Assembly (NCBI RefSeq): GCF_964213995.1
Contig: NW_027590135.1
Coordinates: forward strand, 372,001-436,000
Reading direction: 5' to 3'
From: Mustelus asterias
Taxonomy: Eukaryota
Length of the DNA: 64,000 nt
The position numbers and the translations under genes were made by a program. Shown here piece by piece: positions 34,116-34,440 of this stretch. Numbering within the stretch: the first letter of the stretch is position 1; the number at the start of each line of letters is the position of its first letter. Under the pieces are notes generated by a model. That model ran no database searches. It saw only the letters and a list, made by a program, of their open reading frames with translations, and had not been told where the DNA came from.

Positions 34116-34440
34116 ATCGCTTCTCGGCCTTTTGGCTAAGATCAAGTGTAGTATGGATTGGATGCTGCACTTGGTTGAGGTCATGAGGTTACATTGAAGC
34201 TTCATATGTTTCATATGAAGCAATTTTTAAAAGCGGCATCTCGGCCTTTTGGCTAAGATGCAAATGAGCTCAAGCCTTGGAGGAGGAACCTCCCCCAACT
34301 CCATTCAGCTTGGCTCATGTAGATCGAGCCCAGGACAGGGTAATTTGGTCGCTTGCCCTGACTTGTCAGCCTGGATCGGAAATGTCTCAACTTGTTGAGA
34401 CTCTGAATTGAATTTGATTGAATTGGAAAAGTACAAAAAA
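34116..34440 (+). mobile_element. U2 snRNA-headed, A-tailed structured element (putative U2-SINE or U2/Keno-type chimera)
   Basis: 34116-34154 equals U2 nt 1-39 (ATCGCTTCTCGGCCTTTTGGCTAAGATCAAGTGTAGTAT); second U2 stem-I copy 34236-34261; ends GGAAAAGTACAAAAAA. The U2 match is firm; the element class is inferred. Confidence 0.65.

Follow-up and report, generated by a model that had tools for sequence, protein, structure and literature searches.

The sequence at positions 34116-34440 of the window (the whole stretch of 64,000 nucleotides of Mustelus asterias DNA that was analysed) is one copy of a multi-thousand-copy retroposon family that resembles the SINEUs of crocodilians. A dispersed family of U2 snRNA-headed, A-tailed retroposons with target site duplications (TSDs) had been proposed in the initial annotation and was indeed found: a 28-mer of the 3' hairpin (34384-34426) has 4,619 exact matches in the genome (control, 0), which puts the copy number at 4,619 or more, and the head-body junction of the subfamily of the window copy has 1,206 exact matches (control, 0). 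Sequence comparison makes it probable that this is a family made largely of U2 pieces, likely mobilised by a LINE of the Tx1/Keno type and likely transcribed from U2 promoters that its copies regain by insertion.

The element is 326 nt long and non-coding, and all of its parts described here lie on the + strand. As had been claimed, its head (34116-34154), which contains the branch-point pairing motif, matches nt 1-39 of U2 exactly; it is identical at 39 of 39 positions to the genome's own U2 gene. The head is followed by a degenerate antisense arm (34161-34176), which was recognized by folding and in a shuffle test, where its score was reached by 2 of 1000 shuffles, and which is retained in 10 of 10 recurrent variants. 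As this arm pairs with U2 nt 25-39, the branch-point pairing motif is predicted to be buried. Sequence, fold and variants define the hairpin GCTTCATATG/CATATGAAGC at 34199-34221, next to which lies the single-stranded stretch AATTTTTAAAA (34222-34232), a non-canonical Sm-like site or an old tail with a T run of the Pol III stop type. Identity to U2 reveals a second stem I (U2 nt 4-27) at 34236-34261, which marks the start of a second monomer; over 34236-34259, 23 of 24 positions are identical to U2. The two long hairpin modules that follow (34264-34377) have conserved stems and subfamily-specific loops, as judged from fold, alignment and variants, and the second module is homologous to family B, which is described below. 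A further hairpin with TGAAT-like repeats (34384-34426), by transitive homology a putative decayed U2 stem IIb plus the linker before the Sm site, leads to the 3' end at 34427-34441. This end consists of AAAAGTAC and an A7 tail (34435-34441), the final A of which is also part of a histone H2A start codon. The hairpins, the TGAAT-like repeats and the A tail reported initially were all recovered, and the fold of the element RNA has a z of -6.5, none of 100 shuffles being equally stable.

The window copy has neither a U2 upstream region nor the U2 3' half, in agreement with the initial annotation. The accompanying statement that there is no Sm site did not stand, as an Sm-like AATTTTT, albeit without a G after the U run, is located between two hairpins at 34222-34228, and the Rfam U2 model aligns AATTTTT to the U2 Sm region. 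No TSD was found at the window copy (34116-34441). The set of features expected of a functional U2 gene, namely an upstream promoter, a free branch-point pairing region, an Sm site and stems III-IV, is not found in the element. Other Rfam families were ruled out; U2 alone passed the Rfam search.

The ~285-nt body had been described as non-U2 sequence. It contains a second U2 stem I, an antisense arm and a 3' part homologous to the U2-derived family B, and on these grounds it would be largely decayed U2. Family B is an older retroposon of ~220 nt (L123-L152, e.g., G000:C24:43,078,820), reached via a short element beside a U2 array; of 2,388 candidates 40 were scored and 30 were aligned. It begins with U2 nt 1-34 and an inserted hairpin and continues as decayed U2 nt 44-154, which scores 63 where shuffles reach at most 32, and it retains Sm-like and stem III-like parts while its branch-point motif is disrupted. 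Nucleotides 206-310 of the element are homologous to family B (score 69 vs 42), and 34236-34276 match the family B 5' end at 86 %. The alignments of the element with family B and of family B with U2 each beat 1000 of 1000 shuffles. A direct alignment of the body with U2 lacked significance, with 266 and 588 of 1000 shuffles, and the same holds for module 1 against module 2, with 212 of 1000 shuffles; it is by transitive homology via family B only that the 3' body would be decayed U2. The simplest reading of the sequence is that the element is a dimer in which a newer U2-headed monomer has come to stand ahead of a shortened family-B-like monomer. An origin of a comparable kind has been described by Kojima for the SINEU-1 dimer (PMC4494074).

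The suggestion that the body was born from a U2-targeting retrotransposon was not supported, as the best match between the body and the U2-targeting LINE beyond the shared U2 head has an E of 0.78 and the body traces to decayed U2. A derivation from the Keno-type LINE or from its 3' UTR was rejected on this ground, and so was an internally deleted Keno with a body made up of the Keno 5' part and 3' UTR. Unlike Keno, the SINE encodes nothing and has just the U2 head in common with the LINE, and it is therefore not a deleted Keno.

A search with the body gave 43 matches at 86-100 % on many contigs (40 of 2,512 candidates scored). Among the first 30 copies on C1, which were chosen without bias by the 3' motif alone, 22 start within the U2 head (21 within nt 1-20) and 8 are 5'-truncated. 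TSDs of at least 9 bp were present at 29 of 73 SINE tail sites, with a median length of 15 bp among the 21 that remain after dropping 8 tandem cases. Head-to-tail tandems make up 16 of the first 100 matches listed for the 3' motif. At G000:C1:82,749,881-82,750,142, three head-junction matches lie 117 bp apart, which points to a tandem made up of first monomers only.

The family comprises many subfamilies, which replace one another. Hairpin loops are swapped between them whereas stems are kept (of 38 recurrent variants, 32 do better than shuffled loops), and their specific changes in the head are inherited together with the body. Hairpin covariation, put forward initially as a check, turned out to be weak in formal terms: both sides change in 1 of 61 pairs, with a term of -0.81. 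In 107 near-full copies, 132 A>G changes were counted vs 86 T>C changes (p about 1e-7); 8 copies have at least four A>G changes and 1 has at least four T>C changes. In L173, 22 of 24 changes are A>G. Copies rich in A>G are likely products of ADAR editing of the RNA, followed by reverse transcription. Strand-specific A>G hypermutated copies are located at L173:1603-1926, L194:1196-1525 and L092:946-1285. Together with the TSDs, such copies speak for an RNA intermediate.

Related sequences occur in other organisms. Fourteen runs from five organisms and seven studies contain 0.21-0.42 of the element's words, with no RNA dataset among the runs listed. In a comparison made with the body, contigs were found in runs from organisms A, F and H. 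Of three runs presumed to be RNA, two contain body contigs (74 and 13) and the third has 0, which says nothing of a discrete transcript. No SINE-H2A joint is among the matches listed for those three runs, which is no proof of absence.

The U2-targeting partner of the Tx1/Keno type that the initial annotation had anticipated is present in the same genome. A LINE is inserted at U2 nt 37/38 in the U2 arrays of C24 and in a variant array of C21. It encodes a ZCCHC3-type ORF1, an AP endonuclease and a reverse transcriptase (RT), and one of its copies has an uninterrupted ORF2 frame of 1,144 codons. The A tail of the LINE is joined to U2 nt 38 onward (nt 38-191), and 18 of 76 exact matches to its 3' UTR fall in U2 arrays; a copy outside U2 genes (L185) carries a U2 head. 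Its protein hits include a Tx1-named relative and no named Keno protein. By its sequence, the partner would fit a Tx1-type, Keno-like LINE, Keno being a U2-specific LINE of the Tx1 clade (PMC4494074, PMC4640811). Utopia, which had been considered as well and has the same U2 target site, was rejected as the partner because the endonuclease of the partner is of the AP type, whereas that of Utopia is described as restriction-like (PMC4640811).

The array at G000:C24:44,815,000-44,936,000 (L038-L055) has a unit of 8,035 bp that combines an intact U2 gene with a broken Keno-type LINE, the two having been amplified as one. A second array, at G000:C21:28,042,000-28,082,000 (L112, L113, L187-L191 and L247-L251), has a unit of 448 bp and is heavily invaded by the LINE; its U2 variant is about 90 % identical to the main U2 and the upstream DNA is unrelated. 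At G000:C24:43,017,000-43,058,499 (L115-L119), 9 of 22 array units have one or two tandem repeats of nt 19-37 in place of U2 nt 38-47. The replacement lies exactly at the LINE cut site, and the duplications may be scars of repair, or alleles that resist insertion and have spread by concerted evolution. Array units broken near U2 nt 37 were considered as SINE masters and rejected, as they are short U2 duplications.

Both U2 arrays contain copies of the SINE at U2 nt 37/38. They are followed by TCTGTTCTT, and two of them stand directly behind a U2 gene upstream region; a search for a master copy had been proposed in the initial annotation. All five matches to a pattern composed of the tail and U2 nt 39-48 are copies of the SINE family (control, 1). 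Off target, the cut has a Y|A signature in 20 of 21 SINE insertions and in 11 of 12 insertions of the LINE, and the sequence at the U2 site is AGT|ATC; the signature is short, and the partner LINE was the only one among the Tx1 families to be compared. In 10 of 30 LINE copies examined (9 of them independent; 30 of the 76 matches), a SINE starts within about 55 nt of the LINE tail, and in 1 of the 30 a SINE is joined in front of the LINE. Two retroposed chimeras (L062 and L063) end in a Keno-like 3' UTR. The SINE thus has a target preference in common with the Tx1-type LINE in its U2-site copies, tandems and cut signature, and it is likely mobilised by the enzymes of this LINE.

SINEs normally have their promoter inside the copied RNA; the promoters of snRNA genes lie upstream. 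The multiplication of snRNA-headed SINEs has for that reason been left as an open question; no SINEU promoter is reported in the available text of Kojima, who calls SINEU transcription unsettled (PMC4494074). In the array parts examined here, two SINE copies (L056 and L113) are located seamlessly behind a U2 upstream region. The order in L113 is upstream region, U2 nt 1-40, body, tail and U2 nt 39-185. One of these two copies is an internally deleted variant at 79 % identity, and the other has a changed first base. Array-B upstream DNA followed by the head has 12 exact matches, which comprise six SINEs outside the array, two LINE copies and four plain U2 genes; five of the six SINEs are independent, and different subfamilies are represented. 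TSDs enclose the upstream DNA together with the SINE unit in L183, L184 and L193. The last 5 nt of array-A upstream DNA are carried by 2 of 4 other matches, and L064 has U2 on both sides, inside the TSD. Since array upstream DNA cannot come from mature U2 RNA, some templates originated from SINE copies located in U2 genes. Dispersed copies with such DNA amount to about 7 independent ones by exact patterns, vs the at least 4,619 copies of the family, and they indicate read-through from upstream, not a start at +1. An extra U2 piece (nt 1 to 48-55), the end points of which were bounded by the design of the search pattern, stands in front of the SINE in 19 of 22 matches; such copies may have arisen by a TSD-type insertion in a U2 gene or by template switching to U2 RNA. 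From the genomic arrangement, transcription of the SINE is likely driven by U2 gene promoters, which become available to it again when it inserts in U2 genes.

As to how the family persists, we lean, with modest confidence, towards a long-lived lineage of promoter-less SINEs, consisting almost wholly of decayed U2, that homes to U2 genes via a U2-specific retrotransposon. The LINE endonuclease would nick the U2 gene and the LINE RT would copy the SINE RNA from its A tail. The U2 head of the cDNA would anneal to nt 1-39 of the host gene and rebuild its 5' end, giving a seamless gene with promoter, U2 head, body, tail and U2 3' part, and each entry could in this way become a new snRNA-type Pol II master. 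The antisense arm would conceal, and so silence, the branch-point pairing motif. Most products would end up off target at RNY|AW-like sites and be promoter-less. Landing back inside U2 genes would explain the continued multiplication of elements without a promoter.

The same family and LINE could also operate with RNA that is mainly read-through of host or LINE Pol II transcripts, with U2 heads re-added by template switching and the copies in U2 genes being incidental. Kojima proposed template switching for the 5' extensions of SINEU (PMC4494074), and both the varied ends of the extra U2 piece in 19 of 22 copies and the many copies in tandem with the LINE are compatible with it. The U2-array upstream DNA on dispersed copies is not accounted for by switching to mature U2 RNA, however; the inheritance of subfamily-specific head changes with the body and the 21 of 30 unbiased copies that start at nt 1-20 also speak against this reading, which we regard as unlikely. 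The dependence on the Keno-like LINE might be questioned as well, as most copies are off target, no 3' tail is common to the SINE and this LINE, and CR1-like ORFs abound in the window. A different LINE (L1, CR1/L2 or another Tx1 family) is nevertheless improbable as the main mobilising agent: exact insertions at the U2 site and LINE-SINE tandems occur, and 0 of 21 SINE sites start with AAAA, vs the TT/AAAA target pattern given for L1 (PMC5322556).

The copies could, instead of being a selfish SINE, be retropseudogenes of a functional host non-coding RNA, a variant of U2. The stems that are kept while loops vary, the Sm-like and stem III-like parts kept in family B and the related DNA in several organisms would suit such an RNA. 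A dedicated gene array was not found, however, many subfamilies have replaced each other, the branch-point motif is masked in family A or disrupted in family B, and the in-array copies are insertions with the U2 3' part left behind them; we give this explanation little credence. Least probable of all is an ordinary Pol III SINE that uses chance motifs. Degenerate A-box-like (34250-34260) and B-box-like (34322-34330) motifs do match in the window copy, but the T4/T5 runs at element nt 15, 109 and 132 would terminate transcription by Pol III, most copies differ in the B-box-like letters, and the copies begin at U2 nt 1-20, a long way ahead of the A-box-like motif.

The family works like SINEU and has the structure by which SINEU is defined, with a U2 head, a non-coding high-copy unit of <500 bp, an A tail and TSDs or truncations; the likeness is one of structure. 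The accessible text of PMC4494074 likewise gives SINEU-1, -2 and -3 a U2-derived head, a length of <500 bp, an A tail, TSDs and T runs that argue against Pol III. SINEU and the shark family are also alike in that U2 pieces have been added repeatedly to the 5' end and in that insertions occur in tandem, and family B is, like SINEU-3, a remodelled U2 (PMC4494074). Mobilisation of SINEU was attributed to a Tx1 lineage that clusters with Keno, comparable to the Keno-like partner here (PMC4494074). The host differs, the available text reporting no SINEU outside crocodilians, and so does the target shared by SINE and LINE, which is the U2 gene itself here and Mariner-N4 for SINEU (PMC4494074). Copies behind U2 upstream regions and dispersed copies transducing that DNA were seen in the shark, whereas no promoter was found for SINEU in the same source (PMC4494074). 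The existence of subfamilies and the lack of a body match to the U2-targeting LINE, the sole LINE compared, show that the family is not the sum of independent chimeras with LINE 3' ends.

Keno itself is matched by a partner with AP endonuclease and RT at the U2 site, and the SINE has the same site and signature (PMC4494074, PMC4640811). R2 in 28S rRNA genes is also promoter-less and co-transcribed from a multicopy RNA-gene target, but it is autonomous and Pol I dependent, whereas the SINE is non-autonomous, has a putative Pol II snRNA promoter and is present mostly as off-target copies (PMC4494074). Tailless U2 retropseudogenes are, similarly, 5' U2 fragments dispersed by a LINE; they are without a shared body or tail, whereas the SINE has a constant body of ~290 nt with subfamilies (PMC5322556).

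No snRNA-headed SINE outside crocodilians was found in the openly accessible literature, including the available parts of PMC4494074, PMC4640811, PMC5381603, PMC5786205 and PMC5322556; the family may already be catalogued in Repbase or Dfam. New here would be the host, the use of U2 genes themselves as the target and the genomic evidence for promoter capture. If the homing reading is true, the family would be the first snRNA-headed SINE outside crocodilians and would provide genomic evidence, for the first time, on the transcription of such SINEs. Transcription can be tested directly by 5'-end mapping at four loci (C24:43,060,550, C21:28,064,507, C1:80,334,591 and C8:80,287,704), namely two in-array copies and two array units that have been relocated. 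The family furthermore provides a natural passenger RNA of 330 nt for a Tx1 enzyme with site preference, with which it shares no 3' tail, and it supplies thousands of young insertion markers.

The window copy has likely replaced the promoter and 5' UTR of a histone H2A gene, the intact ORF of which (129 aa) occupies 34441-34830 on the + strand. Its 5' flank (34007-34112, + strand) is a fragment of an unrelated abundant repeat, which we take to be HE1/V-SINE-like, and is cut off at the start of the element. The same repeat is found, with a 94-98 % match, upstream of 7 unoccupied H2A genes. In 5 of these 7, the break point of the repeat is separated from the ATG by 1,145-1,162 bp, and the interval contains CCAAT and TATA-like motifs. 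With its sequence GTGC|AAATG, the empty site agrees with the Y|A signature. The histone 3' UTR stem-loop of the H2A gene is located at 34856-34900 on the + strand (Rfam RF00032, 41.2 bits). Judging from these comparisons, the insertion was likely accompanied by deletion of the promoter: the element would have inserted at the H2A start codon in place of about 1.16 kb of DNA that contained the histone promoter, and would then have been duplicated together with the histone cluster. One insertion plus deletion, later duplicated with the cluster, would explain the 12 junction copies seen, and the locus is a case in which a SINE insertion likely removed a histone promoter before cluster amplification. 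The element is present at the ATG in 6 of 30 H2A genes examined (of 48 matches). Frameshifted or shortened reading frames were seen in 8 of 12 SINE-H2A copies, some of which may be assembly duplicates, vs 1 of 24 H2A genes with normal upstream DNA. The possibility that the element acts as a working H2A promoter was rejected for this reason, and the H2A gene at 34441-34830 is likely a promoter-less pseudogene.

In other H2A promoters (L206, L215 and L224), an unrelated SINE has inserted at the CCAAT box or close to it. The window also contains histone genes for H2B, H3, H4 and H1 (9216-9602, 35610-36021, 40015-40326 and 41574-42254), interspersed with tRNA genes at 10923, 14635, 40940, 43838 and 44240. 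An uninterrupted LINE ORF2 of 999 aa is located at 19278-22277, preceded by an ORF of 284 aa (18350-19204); several broken relatives of this ORF2 are present elsewhere in the window, and all are presumably CR1-like. Long, related minisatellites with units of 36-40 bp occupy 6600-8850, 26086-26789 and 28519-31071.
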